Source: Candidatus Daviesbacteria bacterium RIFCSPLOWO2_01_FULL_37_10
GTDB lineage: Bacteria > Patescibacteriota > Microgenomatia > Daviesbacterales > UBA10151
NCBI GenBank assembly: GCA_001776865.1
Contig: MFDK01000004.1
Coordinates: 1-41,717, forward strand
Length of the DNA: 41,717 nucleotides
Reading direction: 5' to 3'
Positions 2,483-40,206 of the stretch are shown piece by piece (position 1 is the stretch's first letter; each line of letters starts with the position of its first letter). A model generated the notes under the pieces. It made no database searches and was not told the origin of the DNA. It saw only the letters and a program-made list of their open reading frames with translations. A program made the translations under genes and the position numbers.

Positions 2483-2873
2483 ACTTCTCCTTTCTTTTAA
2501 CTTTAGTTTTCTTTTTAGTTTTTTCTTCTGTTTCATTATCTGATGTCTGATGACTGATGTCTGACGACTCTTCTCTCTTTTCTTCAGGCATTACTTCTGC
2601 TATTGCTTCCTTTGCAGCGTTTTTAAGGTCTTCTTTTGCGACTGCTTCAAACTGTCTCCCGACAACTTTACTAACCTTCCAGAATTTCTTTCTTGAAAGG
2701 GGTTTTACTGGAACTATTTCTATTACATCACCCAAAATTACACCCAATTCATCATGCGCAAGAAATTTTTTGCTTCTTTTGTATGTTTTTTTATACAGCG
2801 GATGCTTCTTGGTAGAAGTTATCAAAACCACTGCTGTATCTTTCATTTTTGTTGAAACAACTCGTCCAATCAT
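2472..2873 (-). CDS. rpsQ: 30S ribosomal protein S17 with ~50-aa charged C-terminal extension
   Basis: MIGRVVSTKMKDTAVVLITSTKKHPLYKKTYKRSKKFLAHD... is canonical S17. The tail ...SSDISHQTSDNETEEKTKKKTKVKRKEKSES is encoded by repeat-derived DNA. Confidence 0.9.
   Translation of the reverse strand: MIGRVVSTKMKDTAVVLITSTKKHPLYKKTYKRSKKFLAHDELGVILGDVIEIVPVKPLSRKKFWKVSKVVGRQFEAVAKEDLKNAAKEAIAEVMPEEKREESSDISHQTSDNETEEKTKKKTKVKRKEKSES
2538..2565. repeat. Heptamer tandem array (NNCTGAY)x4, inverted relative to 2455-2482
   Basis: Reads atctgat gtctgat gactgat gtctgac. It lies inside the rpsQ tail coding region and is preceded by a T-rich tract, as at 18736-18762 and 6396-6436. Confidence 0.8.
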
Positions 2874-3103
2874 ATCTTTGACTCCTTGCTTAACTCTTCA
2901 ACTAACTCCTTCTGTCTCAAAATCGTCATCATCTGTGCAATATCTTTTCTTTTTTTGTAAATTCCCTTTATGTCTTTTGAGCCCTTCACTCCTTGCTCTC
3001 TTGCTATAAAAAGCCCTGCCATATCAACTTTAGATTCTTTAATCTTTTTAACAAGATCTTTTATCTCCATATTCTTGATTCCCTTTAAGTCAGTCTTTTT
3101 CAT
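2870..3103 (-). CDS. rpmC: 50S ribosomal protein L29
   Basis: From the ATG at 3101-3103: MKKTDLKGIKNMEIKDLVKKIKESK... It sits in the slot between L16 and S17. The ORF-track start at 3109 is a TTG. Confidence 0.85.
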   Translation of the reverse strand: MKKTDLKGIKNMEIKDLVKKIKESKVDMAGLFIAREQGVKGSKDIKGIYKKRKDIAQMMTILRQKELVEELSKESKI

Positions 3104-3105
3104 AG

Positions 3106-3525
3106 TCAAAACTCTCCCTTGATGATAAATTTCGTTGAAACGGGAAGCTTATGTGCTGCAAGCCTCATTGCCTCCGTTGCTATATCTGTCGTTACAGCTC
3201 CCATTTCAAAAATAAATTGTCCTCTTTTTACAACAGCCACATACCCTTCAACATCTCCTTTACCAGAACCCATTGGAGCCTCTGCCGGATGCTTCGTGAT
3301 AGGTTTATCAGGAAAAACTCTAATCCAAATACGACCGCCTCTTTTAGTATAATTAGTCATCGCCCTTCTAGCAGCTTCAATCTGTCTACTCGTTAACCAG
3401 CCAGACTCCATAGCTTTTAATCCAAATTGCCCAAAGTTCAATTTGTTAGATCTCGTAGCAATACCCCCCATCTTACCTCTAAACTGTTTTCTATATTTTG
3501 TTCTCCCTGGTTGAAGTAATGCCAT
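3106..3525 (-). CDS. rplP: 50S ribosomal protein L16
   Basis: [21 protein letters not shown]... is canonical L16. Confidence 0.97.
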
Positions 3526-10231: not shown

Positions 10232-10281
10232 TTACCATCCAACTCAACCTGTAAATCCGAGGATTCTACGATTTTGGAAAC
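10232..10281 (-). other. Decayed duplicate of the fusA 3' end, including the stop position
   Basis: ttaccatccaactcaacctgtaaatccgaggattctacgattttggaaac compared with fusA 11035-11085 ttacctttcaactctgcctgtaaatccggaggtttctactattttagcagt. By hand alignment 40/50 positions are identical with one 1-nt gap. The relic translates as [15 protein letters not shown]; fusA ends [15 protein letters not shown]. Confidence 0.8.
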
Positions 10282-10282
10282 T

Positions 10283-10828
10283 TCACTCTGAAGCACCAAG
10301 CAAATCTTTTTTCGCTACTATTTTATATGTAGAACAATTTTTTGAAAGTGCTTGGCTAATAAAATTTTCAAATCCCACATAAATAACTTTTTTCTGTTCT
10401 TCTTTCGCTGTTTTTATAGCTGGCAATAAATCTGTATCTGAGGAAAATAAATAACATTTTTCATATTCATTTTTAATCGCGCCGCGAACCATATCAACTG
10501 CAATCTGAACATCCACCCCCTTCTCATGGTAAGAACCGTCGGAGAATAGGAGAAAACCCAGCTTTATTTCGATATCTAATTTTCTTAAATTTGAGAATAA
10601 TGACTGTTGATTTGCATATAAACTTGCAGATTTCTTATTACCAGGATATTTTCTTATTTCACCAACATAATAGATTATCTGCAAATCTTTCGTTTTTTCT
10701 TTAGTTATAGAATGGACAAATTTTCTATAGTCAAGCCTCATTAGGTGAGTTTGGGGTAAGAGTTTCTTAACCTTATTATAGAAATTACTTCCATCAATCT
10801 GAACTAAAATTTTTTTATTCATCCTCAT
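10283..10828 (-). CDS. NYN-domain (LabA/DUF88-like) putative RNase
   Basis: The pattern ...[11 protein letters not shown]...[14 protein letters not shown]...[13 protein letters not shown]... matches the NYN/LabA family (DG.N, KGVD, sDtD). Confidence 0.85.
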
Positions 10829-11034: not shown

Positions 11035-13179
11035 TTACCTTTCAACTCTGCCTGTAAATCCGGAGGTTTCTACTATTTTAGCAGTAATATTACTTGGCAC
11101 TGGTTCATAGTGATCTGCTTCCATGTATGAAGTTGCCCTACCTTGAGACATACTCCTTATATTTGTAACATATCCATGCATTTCTGCTAAAGGAACTAAA
11201 GCTATAACCACCTTGGAATTTCCACGGGATTCGGAAGACAGAATTTGGGCTCTTTTTGCGCTCAAATCCCCAATAATATCCCCTAAAAATTCCTCCGGAG
11301 TAGTAACCTCCACCTTCATTATCGGTTCAAGTAAAATCATGTCCGCACGAGCTGCCGCATCGGAAAGTCCGAGTGACCCGGCTATTTTAAAGGCCATCTC
11401 AGAGGAGTCAACATCATGAAATGATCCATCATAAACTGTAACTTTTATATCCGTAACCGGGTATCCTGCTAAAATTCCAGTATCTTCTTTCTCTATTACA
11501 CCTTTCTCAATTGGTGCAATGAATTCTCTTGGAATAGCACCTCCAACAATTTCTGAAACAAATTCCCTTCCTTGCCCGCGTGGTAATGGCTCAATCTTGA
11601 GTAAACAGTGTCCGTATTGACCGCGACCTCCGGTTTGCCTGATATATTTTCCCTCACCACGAGCTTCCTTTGTAATAGTCTCTTTATATGCAACTTGCGG
11701 CTGGCCAACATTGGCCTCAACCTTAAACTCCCTTTTCATCCGGTCAACCAAAACTTCCAGCTGCAGCTCACCCATTCCGGCTATTATTGTTTGACCGGTT
11801 TCGTGATCAGATTTTACTCTAAAGGTTGGATCTTCCTCAGATAAACGACCAAGAGCTAAACCCAGCTTTTCCTGATCAGACTTTGTTTTAGGTTCAATTG
11901 CAAGGGATATAACCGGTTCCGGAAAAGAAATTGACTCCAAAACTACCGGATTTCCCTCATCACAAAGAGTGTTTCCGGTTATAGTATCTTTAAGTCCAAC
12001 TGCTGCTACAATTTCACCGGCATATGCCTCATCAATTTCTTCTCTATCGTTAGCATGCATAAGAAGAAGTCTACCAACCCGTTCCTTAATTTGTTTATTA
12101 ACGTTATAAACATACGTCCCGGATTTCAAAGTTCCAGCATAAACTCTAATATAGGTTAGCTTTCCAACGTGTGGATCAACTTGAATTTTGAAAGCAAGCG
12201 CGGCCATCGGAGCTTCTTTATCCCCATTGTTAATAACAATCTCTTCTTCAGGATTACTTGGATTTTTCCCGGTAATTGAAGTAATATCCTGCGGCGAAGG
12301 TAAATATTCAACAACACTATCGAGCATGGGCTGAACACCTTTGTTACGAAGTGAAGATCCGGCAAGTACTGGTACGATTTTATTGTCAATAACTGCCCGA
12401 CGAAGAGCTTTTTTCAGATCCTCAACTGAGATTTCCTCTCCACCCAGGTATTTTTCCATTAGCACGTCATCGGTTCCAGAAATCTCCTCCACCAGCTTAT
12501 CTCTATACTTATCTACATCTGAGGTCATATCTGCTGGAATATCTGCTTCTTTGAAATCAGCTCCAGTTTCTGATCCCTCCCATATAAATGCTTTCTTAGT
12601 TAATAAATCTATAACACCGCGAAAATCATTTTCTTTCCCAATTGGCAAGTTGTATGCAACTGCATTTGCGCCGAGTCTATCTCTAGCAGACTGTATTGTC
12701 CCATGAAAATCTGCGCCAACTACATCCATTTTGTTTGCAAAAGCAATAAGTGGAACTTTATATTTATTAGCCTGTCTCCATACTGTTTCTGTTTGAGATT
12801 GAACCCCTGATGCAGAGTCTAGAACAATTACACCTCCGTCCAAAACACGCAGAGATCTCTCGACTTCAGCTGTAAAATCAACGTGTCCCGGGGTATCAAT
12901 TAAGTTAATCCTAATTTCAGCGTCTTTAAAAGAACCACTCTTTGGAGTCCAGAAGGTAGTAATAGCAGCAGAAACAATTGTAATTCCACGCTCTTTTTCC
13001 TGCTCCATCCAGTCAGTTGTAGTTGTTCCCTCATCAATATCGCCAATTTTATAGGTTCGACCGGTGTAAAATAAAATTCGCTCGGTTGTTGTGGTTTTAC
13101 CTGCATCAATGTGCGCAATAATACCTATATTTCTAATTCTATCCAGAGGAAAATCCCGTTTAGTTTTTTGTATAGCCAT
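11035..13179 (-). CDS. fusA: Elongation factor G
   Basis: [41 protein letters not shown]... is 714 aa and canonical EF-G. Confidence 0.97.
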
Positions 13180-13180
13180 A

Positions 13181-13408
13181 TTACCCTAGCTCCTCCTCCA
13201 GTTTTTTTATTGTTTTTCTAGCATTAGCAATCTGCGCAGAAGCAACTTGTGCCTCCTCGGTTCTAAGTTCATACCCTGCATTTTCTTTTAAATCACCCTC
13301 ACGGGCTGCTTCCCCGCGAAGCAGCATCAGCTCATCAAATCTTTTTACAAGCTGACTTTCCTGTTTCTTCCAAAATTCTAATTTTTCTTTCAATGTTTTC
13401 TTATCCAT
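13181..13408 (-). CDS. Stand-alone GreA/GreB N-terminal coiled-coil domain protein (75 aa)
   Basis: ...[46 protein letters not shown] compares with E. coli GreA ...[36 protein letters not shown]. The acidic tip residues (D..E) are retained and there is no C-terminal globular domain. The stop is 1 nt before the fusA ATG. Confidence 0.7.
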
Positions 13409-13438
13409 AAAAAAATAGCCTCCCTCAAACGGGGGAGG
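13409..13438 (-). terminator. Hairpin plus T7 between the 171-aa ORF and the GreA-N-like gene
   Basis: The minus strand reads cctccc-ccgtttga-gggagg, then cta, then ttttttt, and then directly the ATG at 13408. Confidence 0.4.
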
Positions 13439-13472
13439 AGTATGTATATACTACAAAATCCGAACCTAAAAG

Positions 13473-13988
13473 TCAAATCACAATTCCCTGGCTTATCAAA
13501 AATTGATTAAAACTAAGCGCGCTTTGATATAAATCCTCATAATCATCAGGTATTGGAGAATTTTCAAGAATGCAAGGGTATAAATTTTTCCACCTTCTTT
13601 GAAAATTTCTATTTATTAACCCATGAGTAAGTATTGAGGCTTGATTGTGTTCTAACTCTTCACTTAGGCGATGTTTAAATTGAGCATTAATATAATCCTC
13701 CGGATCTAAATCTTTTAGCTCAATGATTAATCTTTTTCCATTTTCATCAGCGCAGCCTTGATGTTCAAGCAAAATATGCGCAACACTGTGTATTGCCCGC
13801 ATCATTTTTCTGCCTGGAGTAAGACTAGCACTTAAATACAGTTTTTTCCTGTAGTTTGGAGGAGACACTTCAAGAACAGCATCCAAATAATCTCTTAACT
13901 CTTCCGTTACTATATTTATTCCATAATAAGGCTTAAGATAATACTCTTCCAACTTTCTCAAAGTAGAATACTCAGTTTCTTGAAGCAT
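13473..13988 (-). CDS. Hypothetical 171-aa protein (possible degenerate ImmA/IrrE-like motif)
   Basis: Clean ORF between rpsG and fusA. The only hint is RKMMRAIHSVAHILLEH, which resembles the HExxH helix of DUF955/ImmA peptidases with the Glu replaced by Ser. Confidence 0.55.
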   Translation of the reverse strand: MLQETEYSTLRKLEEYYLKPYYGINIVTEELRDYLDAVLEVSPPNYRKKLYLSASLTPGRKMMRAIHSVAHILLEHQGCADENGKRLIIELKDLDPEDYINAQFKHRLSEELEHNQASILTHGLINRNFQRRWKNLYPCILENSPIPDDYEDLYQSALSFNQFLISQGIVI

Positions 13989-14038
13989 TGATCTGCAGTT
14001 AAAAGCATCTTAATGTCTGAAAAGCTATATGTCAATAT

Positions 14039-14515
14039 CTACCACCTGAAGTGGGCGAAGGCACGATTGGCATTTGCTACTTTTTGGATTTCTTCTTTTT
14101 TCTTCATGGCAACTCCAGTACCACCAGATGCCTCCATAATTTCTGCTGCAAGTTTTTTATCAAAACTGTGATAATCTTTATTTGGCCTTGTTTGCGCACC
14201 AGTTATAATCCACCTGATTGCCAAAGCTTCTTTTCTATCTCCTCTTACCTCAGATGGAACCTGATACGATGCTCCCCCAACTCTTCTTGGCTTAACTTCC
14301 ATTTTCGGGGAAACATTCGTAATTGCTGTTTCAAAAACTTTTAAAGGATCCTGATTAGATTCCTCTTTAATTTGATCCAGCGCTCCGTAAACCAGTCTTT
14401 GTGCTATACTTTTTTTTCCGTCAATCATCACGTAGTTTATGAATTTTTGCAAAAGTCTGGATCCATAAATAGGATCCGGAGTAATTATTCTTCTTGGTGC
14501 TTTTTTACTTCTCAT
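14039..14515 (-). CDS. rpsG: 30S ribosomal protein S7
   Basis: MRSKKAPRRIITPDPIYGSRLLQKFINYVMIDGKKSIAQRLVY... is canonical S7. Confidence 0.97.
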   Translation of the reverse strand: MRSKKAPRRIITPDPIYGSRLLQKFINYVMIDGKKSIAQRLVYGALDQIKEESNQDPLKVFETAITNVSPKMEVKPRRVGGASYQVPSEVRGDRKEALAIRWIITGAQTRPNKDYHSFDKKLAAEIMEASGGTGVAMKKKEEIQKVANANRAFAHFRW

Positions 14516-14524
14516 TTTTTCCTT

Positions 14525-15001
14525 TTATACTGGTGGAGCTGCATCCGGCGTCGGTGCAGCAGGTGCTGCTGCAGATCTAGGCGCAGCTCCTCCGCCGCCT
14601 TTCTTAGTTCCATATCTGCTTCTCCCCTGCTTTCTTCCAACTACACCTTCCATATCAAGTTTTCCACGGATTATATGATATTTAACTCCAGGAAGGTCTT
14701 TTACTCTACCCCCTCTTACTAAAACTATTCCGTGCTCTGCAAGAGAGTGTCCAATACCCTGAATATATGCAGTAACCTCAGTCCTGTTTGAGAGTCTTAC
14801 CCTGGCAACTTTTCTAAGAGCTGAATTCGGTTTTTTAGGAGTCATAGTTTTTACCAAAGTTACAACACCCCGTTTTTGAGGGTTAAAAGTCTGTTTGTAT
14901 CTCCGATCTTTAGCGTTAAAGCTTTTTCTAAGAGCTGTTGCCTTAATCTTTTTACTAACTTTTGACCTTCCTTTTCTAACTAACTGATTAATTGTCGGCA
15001 T
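14525..15001 (-). CDS. rpsL: 30S ribosomal protein S12 with Gly/Ala/Pro-rich C-terminal tail
   Basis: From the ATG at 14999-15001: [15 protein letters not shown]..., canonical S12. The extra tail [26 protein letters not shown] is encoded by a GC-rich stretch at 14525-14600. Confidence 0.95.
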
Positions 15002-26729: not shown

Positions 26730-27371
26730 TCAAATCATTTTCCCTATAACTACTAGCCTTTTTGTATTTAATCCTGGAGGAACACAGGTCATAAGGGAAA
26801 TATATCTTCCTACCCCATCCGGAGGAAGGGTAACAGAGGTCTCTTTCGGATCCACAACTCTGATCCCTAAAACTTTATATGTAAAATCTCCCCCTGCAGA
26901 AACTTTAATAATATCTCCTTTTTCAAGCCTTTGTAAATTTGCAAAAATTGCTCTATAATTTTTACTACCTCTGTAAATAATCGGTATTGCCGAATGACCT
27001 GAAATAAAAATATTACCTTTCTCCCCAGGAAGCGCGGTTCCCGGCAGATGAACCAATCCTTCACTTAAATTATTACTCTCAACTAAAACTTTTGCCTCTT
27101 CAATATCTAAGCGTGGAACTGAAATTAAAAATTCCGTATACGGAATAAACTCTCTTTTTGAGAAAGATATTAAAGCAGGAAAGTTATCTCTGGTGTTTTG
27201 AATGGAAACTCCCAAAACTCTATTGCTTTCTGAAATTGGACTCACAAGTATATTTTTTGCTTCTATATTGGCAAGTTCCCACAGCTTAAAATTTATAACC
27301 GGTATGGCTATCTGTACTAGAACGAAAAACCCTGCTAATAAAAAAATTGCCGGAATAATTTTTGCAATCAC
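26730..27371 (-). CDS. Sortase-family transpeptidase
   Basis: (GTG start) N-terminal TM helix, ...NIFISGHSAIP... (His), ...YISLMTCVPPG... (TLxTC-like Cys) and a downstream Arg. Confidence 0.8.
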   Translation of the reverse strand: MIAKIIPAIFLLAGFFVLVQIAIPVINFKLWELANIEAKNILVSPISESNRVLGVSIQNTRDNFPALISFSKREFIPYTEFLISVPRLDIEEAKVLVESNNLSEGLVHLPGTALPGEKGNIFISGHSAIPIIYRGSKNYRAIFANLQRLEKGDIIKVSAGGDFTYKVLGIRVVDPKETSVTLPPDGVGRYISLMTCVPPGLNTKRLVVIGKMI

Positions 27372-29653
27372 TTTAAGCTTACCTCAATTTTAATATTACG
27401 TTCTAAAATTGGCAATCTCGCAAGTTGCGCTGGAATAGGCGGTGTGAGTTTTATTTCTGACCCTAAAACATTTTCGTATGATTTTAAAATATCTGCCGCA
27501 GCTTTTGGAGTTTTTCCTGCCAACTTTTTCTTAATTTCGCTCTCATTTATTTTTGGCATCAGTTTTGCTTTGAAACGTGCTAAAAATATAAGCCTTCCAT
27601 CTTTTTCTACTTTAGATACATCAGCTTGTGTTTCTGTATCAGTAAGCCTTAGTTCAAACCCTTCCGGTACGTTTGTCTCAACAAGTTTTGAAACTATGCG
27701 TTTAAGATCATCATCTAAATATACTGTACCTTTATAATTAATAGTTAAATTTAAGTTGAACTCTCCCGCCTGATCGTTAATATTTTTACTAAATGATTTT
27801 TTTGTGATTTCCTCACTTAGTGCTTCTTCCAGAACTTTTTTACCCTCAAGTTTGGCCTGAAGTTTTTCCTGAGCCTGTTTTCTTAAAGCTGCAGCCAATG
27901 ATGCAAGTAGTTTCTTCTGGTCGGAATCTGATACAACAGTAACCTCTTTTGATGTTCCTCCCGAAAAATTACCCTCGGATTTTGCTGAAAAATCAGAAGA
28001 TGGTACTCCGGAAATAGTAAGTTGAGTCCCGGAGGGAATGTTTCCGTCTGCTCCAATCGATACGGAAACAGCATCTACAGTTGCCTTTCCGAAAGAAATA
28101 CCATCTTCAGTTGCAGATTGTGAAGCTATTGTAGCGGATGAGTCCAGAGTAAATTTAAGATTATCAGATCCCACAAGGATAGTCCCTTTGGAAAAGGTTT
28201 TAGAAGAATTTGTCTTATTTGTAATAATCACCGATCCTTTTGCATTTTCCCCAACCTGTTTTTTACCTGTTGCACTTCCCTTTTCGCTTCCGCTAATTTG
28301 AGTTTCAACTATTTGACCGGGTATTTTTTTACCTTCCTCATCAACTTCTTTTACACTAGGATCTGCTGTAACTTGAGTATCTTTTTCAACAACTCTCGGC
28401 TCTACAAATACCGTAACTTTTGCCTGAGGAAGGAAAATATATGATAAGACAAGAAGGATTAAAATTACAACAGGAATTATTAGCTTTAGATTGAAAAATC
28501 TACTACCTGATCCTTCTAACTTCTCCCTTGTTACTGAAGGTGTCGCTAATGAGTTATCCTGAACAGGAAATCCCAAGTTATGTTGTGTTTTTTCCATCTC
28601 TCCATCTTCTTCCTGACCGAAATCTTCATCCAGTCCATCAGTAGTTTGGACAAATTCATCATCAGGATTAACGTCTTTTTCCATGACCCTTAAATCTTCA
28701 GTTCCATCGTCTTCTTTTATTAAACTCTCATCCTTTTCATCTTCAGCAGAAACTTTTTCCATCACATCTCCCTGAACAAAACCTGTATCCTCAACCGGAA
28801 TTTGTTTTTCAGGTGGTTCAGGAATTTTTACTTCTTCTTCCTTTGGCATAGCAGAAACTAAAGGTGAGTTCTTTACAAGCTGTTCTACAGGCTGGTACTT
28901 TATATCCGGCACCAGTTCAACTCCTCCGGCAAGCGCAACAGCTTTAATTTCCAAACCCCCTTCCAGGATATCAATTTTAGGGAGATGTAGAAACGAAAGC
29001 CGATTCATCCAGGGGAATGACAAAAGTTCATTTTTTTGTTTATCAAGGCTCTCTGCGTTTAGGCTGAAAAGAAGCATCCTTGAAGGAAGAACCTCAACCT
29101 CGGTAAATTGCAAAAGAAGCTTTTCTATATCCTCACCCAAACTACCGCTTCTTTTTATTATCTTTGTTCCATCAATTTTACCTCCTCTTGAAACCGTAAC
29201 TAAAACATGCCCTTCTCCAACTCCTGTAAGTATCGCCGTAGTTGGTGCACTTTCTTTTTTCTCAAGAAAATGAAAAATAGCATGTGAGGTTGAAACAAAA
29301 GCCATTGGTTTAAGCTCAAGGCTTTTTACAACATTCCTTAAAAGCTGCAAATATGAATCTTTTAAATTGTCATCAACCAGCCAGGAATCAGGAACTCCAA
29401 AGAGTATTTTTGTAGGCTCAATTTGAATTTCCCCTAAAGCCTGATCTAAAAGCCTGTCGGCAACTGTAACAATTTCCTCCTCGGACGAATATTTTGAAGA
29501 AACTATATTTAAAACTTTTAACTTATCTTTTTCTATTGTCCAGAGGCAAACCCTTAAAGTTTCCGGTCCAATATTAAGAGCAAAAAAAGTCTCAGTTTGT
29601 TCCTCTGGTTTACCGAAAGGCAGCATTGATGTAACTTTATCCAAAAAACTCAT
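27368..29653 (-). CDS. Large membrane protein: N-terminal FtsA/PilM-like (actin-fold) region, acidic linker, one TM helix, ~350-aa extracytoplasmic domain
   Basis: From the ATG at 29651-29653: MSFLDKV... The N-terminal ~260 aa (FFALNIGPETLRV...LKPMAFVSTSHAIFHFL...AILTGVGEGHVLVTV) weakly resembles the FtsA/PilM pattern. The TM helix is LKLIIPVVILILLVLSYIFL. The stop overlaps the sortase start. Confidence 0.6.
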   Translation of the reverse strand: MSFLDKVTSMLPFGKPEEQTETFFALNIGPETLRVCLWTIEKDKLKVLNIVSSKYSSEEEIVTVADRLLDQALGEIQIEPTKILFGVPDSWLVDDNLKDSYLQLLRNVVKSLELKPMAFVSTSHAIFHFLEKKESAPTTAILTGVGEGHVLVTVSRGGKIDGTKIIKRSGSLGEDIEKLLLQFTEVEVLPSRMLLFSLNAESLDKQKNELLSFPWMNRLSFLHLPKIDILEGGLEIKAVALAGGVELVPDIKYQPVEQLVKNSPLVSAMPKEEEVKIPEPPEKQIPVEDTGFVQGDVMEKVSAEDEKDESLIKEDDGTEDLRVMEKDVNPDDEFVQTTDGLDEDFGQEEDGEMEKTQHNLGFPVQDNSLATPSVTREKLEGSGSRFFNLKLIIPVVILILLVLSYIFLPQAKVTVFVEPRVVEKDTQVTADPSVKEVDEEGKKIPGQIVETQISGSEKGSATGKKQVGENAKGSVIITNKTNSSKTFSKGTILVGSDNLKFTLDSSATIASQSATEDGISFGKATVDAVSVSIGADGNIPSGTQLTISGVPSSDFSAKSEGNFSGGTSKEVTVVSDSDQKKLLASLAAALRKQAQEKLQAKLEGKKVLEEALSEEITKKSFSKNINDQAGEFNLNLTINYKGTVYLDDDLKRIVSKLVETNVPEGFELRLTDTETQADVSKVEKDGRLIFLARFKAKLMPKINESEIKKKLAGKTPKAAADILKSYENVLGSEIKLTPPIPAQLARLPILERNIKIEVSLK

Positions 29654-29713
29654 GCGGTTTTGCCCCAAAAGAAGGAGGCATTAATAGAATATTAACACAT
29701 TCAAATATCTTCC

Positions 29714-38508: not shown

Positions 38509-40206
38509 TTAGACCTCCACAACTACCGGTAAAATCATTGGTCTACGCTCTGTTGCCTGATGTAAAAACTTTTGCAGATCATTTTCTATGCTTCTTCTTG
38601 TAAGCCTCCAGTCAGATATTTTTTTACCTTGCTGGTTTATTGTATTTTTTACAACCTCTCTTGCGTCATCTAAAAGTTCTTCTGATATTTCTTCAAAAAC
38701 AAATCCTTTTGAAATAACATCAGGCTCCCCCACTAAATTTCCTGAACTGTGATCCACCCTCACAATAACTACAACAATTCCCTCCTCACTCATAAGTTTC
38801 CTATCCCGTAAAACAACATTCCCTATATCTCCTACACCAAGTCCGTCAACAAATATATTTTGTACATCAACTCTCCCGTCAATCTTTATACCGTTTCTAT
38901 CCAAATTAATAATATCTCCATCTACTACATCCAGAATTTTGCGTTTTTCATATCCTAACCCCTGAGCCATATTTGAAAATGCCCTCATATGTTTATAAGT
39001 ACCTCCTATCGGAAGCATGTATTCAGCTTTGATTAAATTTACCATAAGCCTTAGCTCCTCAAGCGCAGCATGACCTGAAACATGCAAATCAGAAGTTATG
39101 GCAGAATAATAAACATTTACCCCTAACTTTGTTAAATCATCAATTAAAGCATTTTGTGCAGATTCTGTCGATGGAATCGGGTCTGCCGAAAAAATAACAC
39201 TATCCCCGTCTTTTAATTTGATTGTTTTATGTTCATCGTTTGCAACCCGATCCAGTGCTGACCCTTCCTGACCTTGTGATCCTGCAATTAAAATAAGTAG
39301 CTTACCAGGTGCAAACGAAGGAATTGCTTCCTGATTTATCATGATTCCCGGAGGAGCATTCAAATACCCAAGGTCTCTTGCAACCTGAAAATTATTTTCA
39401 AAGCTTCTCCCTGCAAGTGTAACTTTACGACCCAATTTATAAGCCACGTTTATTGCCTGCTGCATCCTGGATACATTTGAGGACGTCATTGTAATTAAAA
39501 GCTTACCCTGTGTATCAAGAGCTGCTTTTTCAAAGGTTTCCTCAATACTTTTTTCGCTTTTATTAAATCCCGGTTTTTCAACTCTCAAGCAATCCATTAA
39601 AAGAAGCTTTACACCAGATGCGCCAACCTGGGCAATACGGTTTACATCTGTAACTTGCCCAGAAACCGGAGTCCAGTCTATTTTAAAATCTGCCTGATGA
39701 ATAATAGTTCCCACGGGAGTTTTAATAACAATCCCCTGAGAGTCAGGGATTGAGTGGGAAACCACATAAAATGATATATCAAAAACTCCAAGTTTAAGAG
39801 TTTGATCAAATTTAAGATCAAAAATTTTGTTTTTAGGTAAATTATGTTCAGTGAACTTGGCTCTTATAAATCCTGCAGTAAGTCTTTGGGTATAGATTGG
39901 AACCTGAAGTTCTGGCCAAATAAAGGGGAGCCCACCAATGTGGTCATCATGTCCATGAGTAATTATTATCCCTCTAATTTTATCAGTTTTGCCTCTGAGG
40001 TAAGATATATCCGGAATAACAAGATCAACCCCAGGCATAGCTTCATCAGGAAACCCAACTCCACAATCAATAATAATAATATCATTTCCGTATTCATAAA
40101 TATACATGTTCTTTGTGACATCACCTACACCACCAAGTGGAATAAGTTTAAGTGTCCCACCAGCTTTGTTGTTATCTCCAAAAAACTTTGGTTTAAAACT
40201 TTTCAT
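38509..40206 (-). CDS. rnj: Ribonuclease J (beta-CASP metallo-beta-lactamase)
   Basis: ...IIITHGHDDHIGGLPFIWPEL... is the HxHxDH motif. Length is 565 aa with RNase J architecture. Confidence 0.93.
   Translation of the reverse strand: MKSFKPKFFGDNNKAGGTLKLIPLGGVGDVTKNMYIYEYGNDIIIIDCGVGFPDEAMPGVDLVIPDISYLRGKTDKIRGIIITHGHDDHIGGLPFIWPELQVPIYTQRLTAGFIRAKFTEHNLPKNKIFDLKFDQTLKLGVFDISFYVVSHSIPDSQGIVIKTPVGTIIHQADFKIDWTPVSGQVTDVNRIAQVGASGVKLLLMDCLRVEKPGFNKSEKSIEETFEKAALDTQGKLLITMTSSNVSRMQQAINVAYKLGRKVTLAGRSFENNFQVARDLGYLNAPPGIMINQEAIPSFAPGKLLILIAGSQGQEGSALDRVANDEHKTIKLKDGDSVIFSADPIPSTESAQNALIDDLTKLGVNVYYSAITSDLHVSGHAALEELRLMVNLIKAEYMLPIGGTYKHMRAFSNMAQGLGYEKRKILDVVDGDIINLDRNGIKIDGRVDVQNIFVDGLGVGDIGNVVLRDRKLMSEEGIVVVIVRVDHSSGNLVGEPDVISKGFVFEEISEELLDDAREVVKNTINQQGKKISDWRLTRRSIENDLQKFLHQATERRPMILPVVVEV

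Follow-up and report, generated by a model that had tools for sequence, protein, structure and literature searches.

A stand-alone Gre-type N-terminal coiled coil encoded directly upstream of fusA in Daviesbacteria-like Microgenomates

Directly upstream of fusA, the gene for elongation factor G (EF-G), the window (the whole stretch of DNA analysed here, 41,717 nucleotides of contig MFDK01000004.1 from Candidatus Daviesbacteria bacterium RIFCSPLOWO2_01_FULL_37_10) carries a 75-aa open reading frame whose product, hereafter mini-Gre, corresponds by sequence comparison to the N-terminal coiled coil of the Gre factors and to that domain only. Mini-Gre is a lineage-wide family of Daviesbacteria-like Microgenomates, tied to fusA and not to rpsG or rpoC, and it is under purifying selection. 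On balance, we think it probable that mini-Gre is a Gre-family transcript-cleavage factor that does without the C-terminal domain (CTD) that binds RNA polymerase (RNAP), and that it is co-expressed with EF-G. Gre factors are understood as two-domain proteins, in which a catalytic finger is joined to an anchor held necessary for RNAP binding. A finger-only family with a strictly conserved tip raises the question of how little suffices to service the RNAP active site, and of whether the anchor has been made dispensable by the polymerases of CPR bacteria or by gene dosage through the EF-G operon.

The mini-Gre gene runs on the minus strand from ATG to TAA. Its stop codon (13183-13181) is followed by a single base (13180) and then by the fusA ATG at 13179, as an earlier note on this DNA had described, and the Shine-Dalgarno sequence of fusA (GGAGGAGGAG) lies within the last mini-Gre codons (GAG GAG GAG CTA GGG). 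On the minus strand the genes are ordered rpoB, rpoC, rpsL, rpsG, a 171-aa ORF, mini-Gre, fusA, a NYN-domain gene, tuf and the S10 operon. The gene had been placed between rpsG and fusA and near rpoC; this holds, with rpoC about 1.6 kb away and with the unrelated 171-aa ORF intervening, such that rpsG is not adjacent. The genes that matter for the argument are as follows.

13181..13408, minus strand: mini-Gre coding sequence; the product is the antiparallel coiled coil of the Gre N-terminus and lacks the C-terminal domain (ORF translation, HMM, hhalign, model, dN/dS)
11035..13179, minus strand: fusA (EF-G), the conserved downstream partner (translation and sequence)
13988-13473, minus strand: unrelated 171-aa ORF of no secure family, with only a weak IrrE/M78 match
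14515-14039, minus strand: rpsG (gene order reading)
15006, minus strand: end of rpoC (gene order reading)
2873-3148: genuine L29 gene in the S10 operon (Pfam/annotation of the window)

Elsewhere in the window there is no further Gre-like or DksA-like gene. The NYN-domain gene (a predicted RNase; 10283-10828, minus strand) is inserted between fusA and tuf, where other genomes carry different genes; a weak phmmer match that made it a candidate Gre-like partner was noise, and the gene carries a NYN domain.

The identification of a stand-alone Gre N-terminal domain (NTD), made earlier from the sequence alone, was borne out by a family HMM, by hhalign, by a profile search of the PDB and by a modelled hairpin, and it is secure at the level of the family, not from the window protein alone. 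By itself, the window protein matches Pfam GreA_GreB_N (PF03449) over residues 32-69 with an E-value of 0.0023 and 18.6 bits, below the gathering score of 24.5; the proposed check against PF03449 succeeded for the family, 21 of 23 diverse members of which match the model (best E 2.9e-11), and stayed sub-threshold for the single protein. Seven NCBIfam GreA models are also matched by the window protein, the best being TIGR01462 greA (E 2e-4, residues 18-69). When the mini-Gre profile was aligned by hhalign to eleven full-length CPR GreAs recovered from genomes, residues 9-69 of mini-Gre corresponded to residues 8-68 of GreA with a probability of 98.8% and an E-value of 4.6e-17. In a PDB search with a broad profile, the three best sequences were E. 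coli GreA (1grj) with an E-value of 2e-5, a chimera of Thermus GreA and Gfh1 with 6e-4, and GreB. The AlphaFold2 model of mini-Gre is a two-helix hairpin (helices 3-36 and 44-74, pLDDT 89) of the same length as the GreA NTD, and its best Foldseek match in the PDB is again GreA 1grj, with generic hairpins scoring similarly.

It had also been claimed that the ORF stops where the anchoring CTD would begin, and the full-length proteins agree with this: all eleven CPR GreAs contain both PF03449 and PF01272, with PF01272 starting at about residue 78, while the window protein ends at residue 75 and, as anticipated, has no Pfam match to PF01272.

The close family comprises 23 homologues of 75-86 aa with 28 invariant positions, which are concentrated in residues 28-57; an exhaustive search brought more distant small proteins into a broad alignment. 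The tip motif G38-D39-L40-K41-E42-N43-A44 is encoded at 13277..13297 (minus strand), and in the broad alignment G38, D39, L40 and E42 are invariant and N43 nearly so. The catalytic residues D41 and E44 of E. coli GreA (GDLKENAEY in 1grj) have their counterparts in D39 and E42, which confirms that both acidic residues of the tip are kept, and Ala34, Ala35 and Glu51, which are conserved in real Gre factors, are retained as well. The closest full-length relatives are the GreAs of CPR bacteria, including the ~148-aa GreA of Shapirobacteria, in which the homologous coiled coil has the same length, the tip GDL(K/S/R)ENAxY is the same and the flanks (EAAxEGDL...E) are nearly identical: EAAAEGDLKENSAY. 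The consensus of the full-length CPR GreA NTD over this region is RSEAAAEGDLKENSAYIFMGERAxVLxSQI. What sets mini-Gre apart, besides the missing globular domain that anchors GreA and GreB on the beta' rim helices, is a tryptophan within a K(L/I)xxW motif that is common to all mini-Gre groups and absent from the full-length NTDs in group consensus sequences. This residue, Trp13 (codon 13370..13372, minus strand), is invariant in the close subfamily and is a candidate for a substitute contact residue.

A profile search (E below 1e-3) recovered at least 518 mini-Gre clusters at 90% identity. Among the matches listed, 120 mini-Gre clusters are all 74-95 aa long, and most carry PF03449 alone. A narrow profile, run exhaustively against representative sequences, gave 16 representatives, all of them small but for one repetitive 2564-aa protein with 13 short matches, and no mini-Gre relative was found among the viral contigs searched. 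Individual look-ups of genomic context always placed mini-Gre directly before fusA. For a systematic survey, GTDB species genomes were scanned for the tip motif [EA]AAx[EM]GDL[RSK]E, which occurs in 417 stretches in all of GTDB; the scan yielded 77 loci in 73 assemblies, which HMM searches divided as follows.

46 assemblies: mini-Gre directly upstream of EF-G, with a gap of about -13 to +142 nt
4 assemblies among these 46: further mini-Gre copies elsewhere
4 assemblies: only mini-Gre copies that are not next to EF-G
23 assemblies: ordinary ~148-aa GreA (11 Shapirobacteria, others)
0 assemblies: both mini-Gre and full-length GreA

Conservation of the gene at this position, which the earlier note had proposed to survey, is therefore found in 46 of the 50 species genomes that bear mini-Gre. 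The split of 50 mini-only, 23 full-length-only and no mixed assemblies comes from a scan that sees only genes with this one motif, and a conventional GreA whose tip reads otherwise would have escaped it; likewise, in the complete 820-kb Daviesbacteria chromosome CP066688.1 only mini-Gre was found by the same tip-motif scan. In the 46 assemblies with a fusA-linked copy, the distance between mini-Gre and the rpsG upstream of it varies from 21 to 6436 nt. Since this distance is variable and the gap to fusA short, what is conserved is the pairing of mini-Gre with fusA, and the DNA that separates rpsG from mini-Gre is a site of variable insertions. None of the full-length greA genes in the scan has an EF-G gene within 3 kb downstream, in contrast to the position of mini-Gre. 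As a separate observation, the cargo of the rpsG-to-mini-Gre interval (loci L001-L067) includes a Trp-repressor-like gene, a histidine phosphatase, a histidine kinase and a PKD-domain protein, and in the window the 171-aa ORF.

Between the EF-G of the window and those of the scanned mini-bearing genomes, identity is 78-92%, which places the window organism in the same Daviesbacteria-like clade, whereas its mini-Gre is only 37-49% identical to theirs. Many of the MAG records among loci L009-L077 are titled "uncultured Gammaproteobacteria bacterium" (binchicken/SRP co-assemblies) and nonetheless carry an EF-G that is 78-87% identical to the window's and to those of named Daviesbacteria; on such str operons the title is evidently a placeholder or wrong.

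Mini-Gre copies away from fusA often occur in tandem pairs, and one further pair stands upstream of fusA.

L040, 9905-10477: tandem mini-Gre pair, not fusA-linked; Asp-to-Tyr copy at 10235-10477
L047, 1799-2391: tandem mini-Gre pair, not fusA-linked
L058, 1487-2067: tandem mini-Gre pair, not fusA-linked
L068, 1779-2370: tandem mini-Gre pair, not fusA-linked
L027, 207-654: tandem mini-Gre pair upstream of fusA; tip of the second copy GDWNENAEF

In the tandem pairs, one copy has the tip GDLSENAAY and the other GYLSENA-Y, in which the first catalytic Asp is replaced by Tyr and one residue is deleted. Judging from these substitutions, the tip-mutated paralogues may be natural inactive or antagonist forms. 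That the K(L/I)xxW motif is shared by all mini-Gre groups and missing from full-length NTDs suggests a single origin of mini-Gre, followed by duplication and relocation. Some of the copies away from fusA have a convergent gene for an RRM-type RNA-binding protein downstream, a neighbour they share with several full-length greA genes, which hints weakly that these copies sit at the ancestral greA locus. At one other locus (L086, 4163-4611) a full-length-type greA is split into gene calls of 50 aa (N-terminal) and 54 aa (C-terminal) about 130 nt apart; this greA is decaying or mis-assembled and is no true split gene.

How might a finger without an anchor work? Folded like the GreA NTD, mini-Gre would enter the RNAP secondary channel and bring D39 and E42 to the active site. 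There the two residues would stimulate the endonuclease activity intrinsic to the polymerase, backtracked RNA would be cut, and stalled transcription could resume. With the anchor missing, occupancy of the channel would depend on a high concentration of mini-Gre, which would be ensured by co-transcription with the gene for the highly abundant EF-G, joined in most genomes by coupled translation, and maybe on a family-specific contact, for instance through Trp13, a conserved residue close to the finger's base. The isolated GreA NTD studied by Koulich and colleagues reportedly keeps weak cleavage-inducing activity. In the two-domain factors, the nucleolytic and anti-arrest activities are assigned to the NTD and the binding to RNAP beta' to the CTD (PMC3132773).

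That mini-Gre binds RNAP, stimulates cleavage and is the main or only Gre factor of its lineage is our inference, as are the part given to Trp13 and the argument from dosage; the underlying reading as a CTD-less Gre factor draws on the homology to the Gre NTD, the invariant GDLxEN tip, the length of the hairpin, purifying selection, the size of the family and the 50/23/0 split of the scan. EF-G directly downstream in 46 of 50 mini-bearing genomes is counted in its favour too, although this reading does not require so tight a tie to fusA, in place of one to rpoBC, and the tie could point to a translation-related role. Other points weigh against it: the E. coli CTD is needed for stable binding to RNAP, so a bare finger may bind too weakly; the scan covered one tip motif, and a conventional GreA with another tip context may co-occur; and the window protein alone stays under the Pfam threshold. 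A more far-reaching version, which we put forward tentatively and regard as possible rather than probable, is that mini-Gre would be the sole Gre-type factor of Daviesbacteria-like Microgenomates and would have replaced two-domain GreA, with the anchor substituted by Trp13 or by EF-G/ribosome-coupled delivery, with the Asp-to-Tyr paralogues acting as antagonists, and with the whole forming a minimal, hairpin-only secondary-channel system.

The same finger could also occupy the channel without cutting. Gfh1 of Thermus, Rnk, DksA and TraR all have a helical finger that is likely aimed at the same site on RNAP, and mini-Gre might, like Gfh1, DksA or TraR, modulate initiation, pausing or the access of other factors. 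TraR, a protein of about 73 aa, provides a precedent for a small binder that can work in the secondary channel, and an anchor-less finger may bind transiently, as a competitor could; the tandem paralogues that have lost the first acidic tip residue (GYLSENA-Y) indicate, in addition, that the family diversifies at the catalytic position. The likeness has limits, however, since Gfh1 and Rnk keep the Gre CTD, which mini-Gre lacks, and DksA and TraR have a globular part with a Cys4 zinc finger and are not homologous to the Gre NTD, whereas mini-Gre contains no cysteine, no globular part and no Pfam match to the DksA/TraR C4 zinc finger (PF01258). Moreover, in the copy linked to fusA the entire Gre tip, with its two acidic residues, is invariant across hundreds of clusters, which fits catalysis better than occupancy, and in the mini-bearing genomes the tip-motif scan saw no full-length GreA to compete with. 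We consider a non-cleaving channel regulator unlikely.

A role on the translation apparatus, in which the repurposed hairpin would bind EF-G or the ribosome or take part in transcription-translation coupling, would explain why the gene travels with fusA, as seen in the gap of -13 to +142 nt to fusA in 46 genomes against a distance of 21 to 6436 nt to rpsG. L29, another helical hairpin, was also a weak PDB match of the close-subfamily profile. Yet housekeeping transcription factors are often encoded within ribosomal-protein operons, paralogues away from fusA exist, and the residues conserved in mini-Gre coincide exactly with the ones through which Gre factors serve RNAP catalysis. The L29 matches were as weak as those to GreA with the narrow profile (E 0.3-0.6, not significant) and were absent with the broad one, which finds GreA at E 2e-5; mini-Gre has no Pfam match to uL29 (PF00831); and a true L29 gene is present at 2873-3148. 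An L29 paralogue was rejected on the broad profile, hhalign and this genuine gene, and a translation role in general seems improbable to us.

A split Gre factor, in which mini-Gre would work with a separately encoded Gre C-terminal domain docking on RNAP, is highly improbable. Proteins with PF01272 alone are present in the protein database, but of two contigs read that encode them, one owes its protein to truncation at the contig end and the other to a broken full-length gene, and several of the remaining proteins begin inside GreA sequence and look like truncated calls. Neither the window nor the mini-bearing loci searched, about 0.75 Mb in all, contain a CTD-like ORF. The PF01272-only proteins came from a database search with a CPR GreA CTD alignment, which gave only 18 short proteins as candidate orphan partners and, having missed the full-length GreAs behind the alignment, is uninformative on such a partner.

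The weakest alternative takes the ORF for an artefact, be it a greA in decay or disrupted by a frameshift, a paralogue of L29 or an open frame that arose by chance. It has the sub-threshold Pfam score of the window protein on its side and is refuted by the evidence in hand, which leaves it next to no probability. The dN/dS of mini-Gre is 0.16 (dS 0.74) and 0.14 against two relatives, that is, about 0.15, and a family of this many clusters shares one length among the members listed. Four independent groundwater/soil metagenome runs agree over 13102-14100, a stretch that takes in the ORF, without a substitution or indel, and three of the four cover the locus from 12994 or earlier. The claim that no frameshift joins the ORF to a Gre C-domain stands, because the start of fusA leaves no room for it, in the window as in about 50 other genomes. 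A fusion of mini-Gre and EF-G by frameshift was likewise rejected, since the spacing between the two genes differs from genome to genome.

The identity of the domain is not new: databases label many members GreA/GreB-like, and member names range from "GreA/GreB family factor" (JGI) to "hypothetical" in Daviesbacteria (NCBI). For the subfamily of the window protein there is no precomputed Pfam match and a single NCBI name, "Uncharacterized protein", in a Microgenomates MAG, so that its current labels, "uncharacterized" or "hypothetical", call for correction. What is apparently new is a naturally finger-only family that spans a whole lineage, is linked to fusA and seemingly replaces GreA, together with its paralogues and its leader element. 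In the literature searched there was no description of a stand-alone Gre N-domain or of a naturally anchor-less Gre factor, and no paper that links GreA to Patescibacteria, Daviesbacteria or CPR, or that cites PF03449. The nearest counterpart is the laboratory-made isolated GreA NTD (Koulich et al. 1998, J Mol Biol 276:379; cited in PMC3132773 and PMC7527559), which is the same piece of protein; that fragment, however, was engineered from a two-domain protein, whereas mini-Gre is the natural, selected product of a whole lineage. As such, it would offer a natural minimal scaffold with which to probe or block the secondary channel.

Upstream of the mini-Gre start codon the window contains two further elements.

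13409..13438, minus strand: leader hairpin CCTCCC-CCGTTTGA-GGGAGG followed by CTATTTTTTT, directly before the ATG (terminator scan)
13448..13476, minus strand: promoter-like site TTGACT-17 nt-TAGTAT, just upstream of the hairpin (consensus scan only)

The leader hairpin is terminator-like, its 3' arm doubles as the Shine-Dalgarno sequence and its 5' arm (GCCTCCC) resembles an anti-Shine-Dalgarno sequence. It is the sole such motif in the window, and in 40 of 50 related loci (for example L023, L031, L034 and L043) a comparable hairpin with a T-run lies no more than 120 nt upstream, compared with 8.65% of random windows. The E. coli greA leader also has a terminator (GraL). The hairpin could be an attenuator, a switch that sequesters the Shine-Dalgarno sequence or a 5' stabiliser, and beside the last option we note that RNase J is encoded in the window (38509-40206). 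No Rfam family was found in the window, the hairpin included, and none of the metatranscriptomes searched contains the locus. As for the promoter-like site, strings such as TTGAC...TAATAT can be read upstream of mini-Gre in several relatives.

Two observations concern other genes of the window. At the 3' end of rpsL (about 14525-14640, minus strand), S12 has a Gly/Ala/Pro-rich C-terminal extension of about 35 aa, and the rpsL ORF as annotated (179 aa) overlaps the end of rpoC, with the true start likely at MPTINQL. Further along the contig, a 766-aa protein (27368-29668, minus strand) with only a weak Baseplate_J-like match is encoded directly upstream of a sortase gene (26730-27371, minus strand) and may be a sortase substrate or surface protein.
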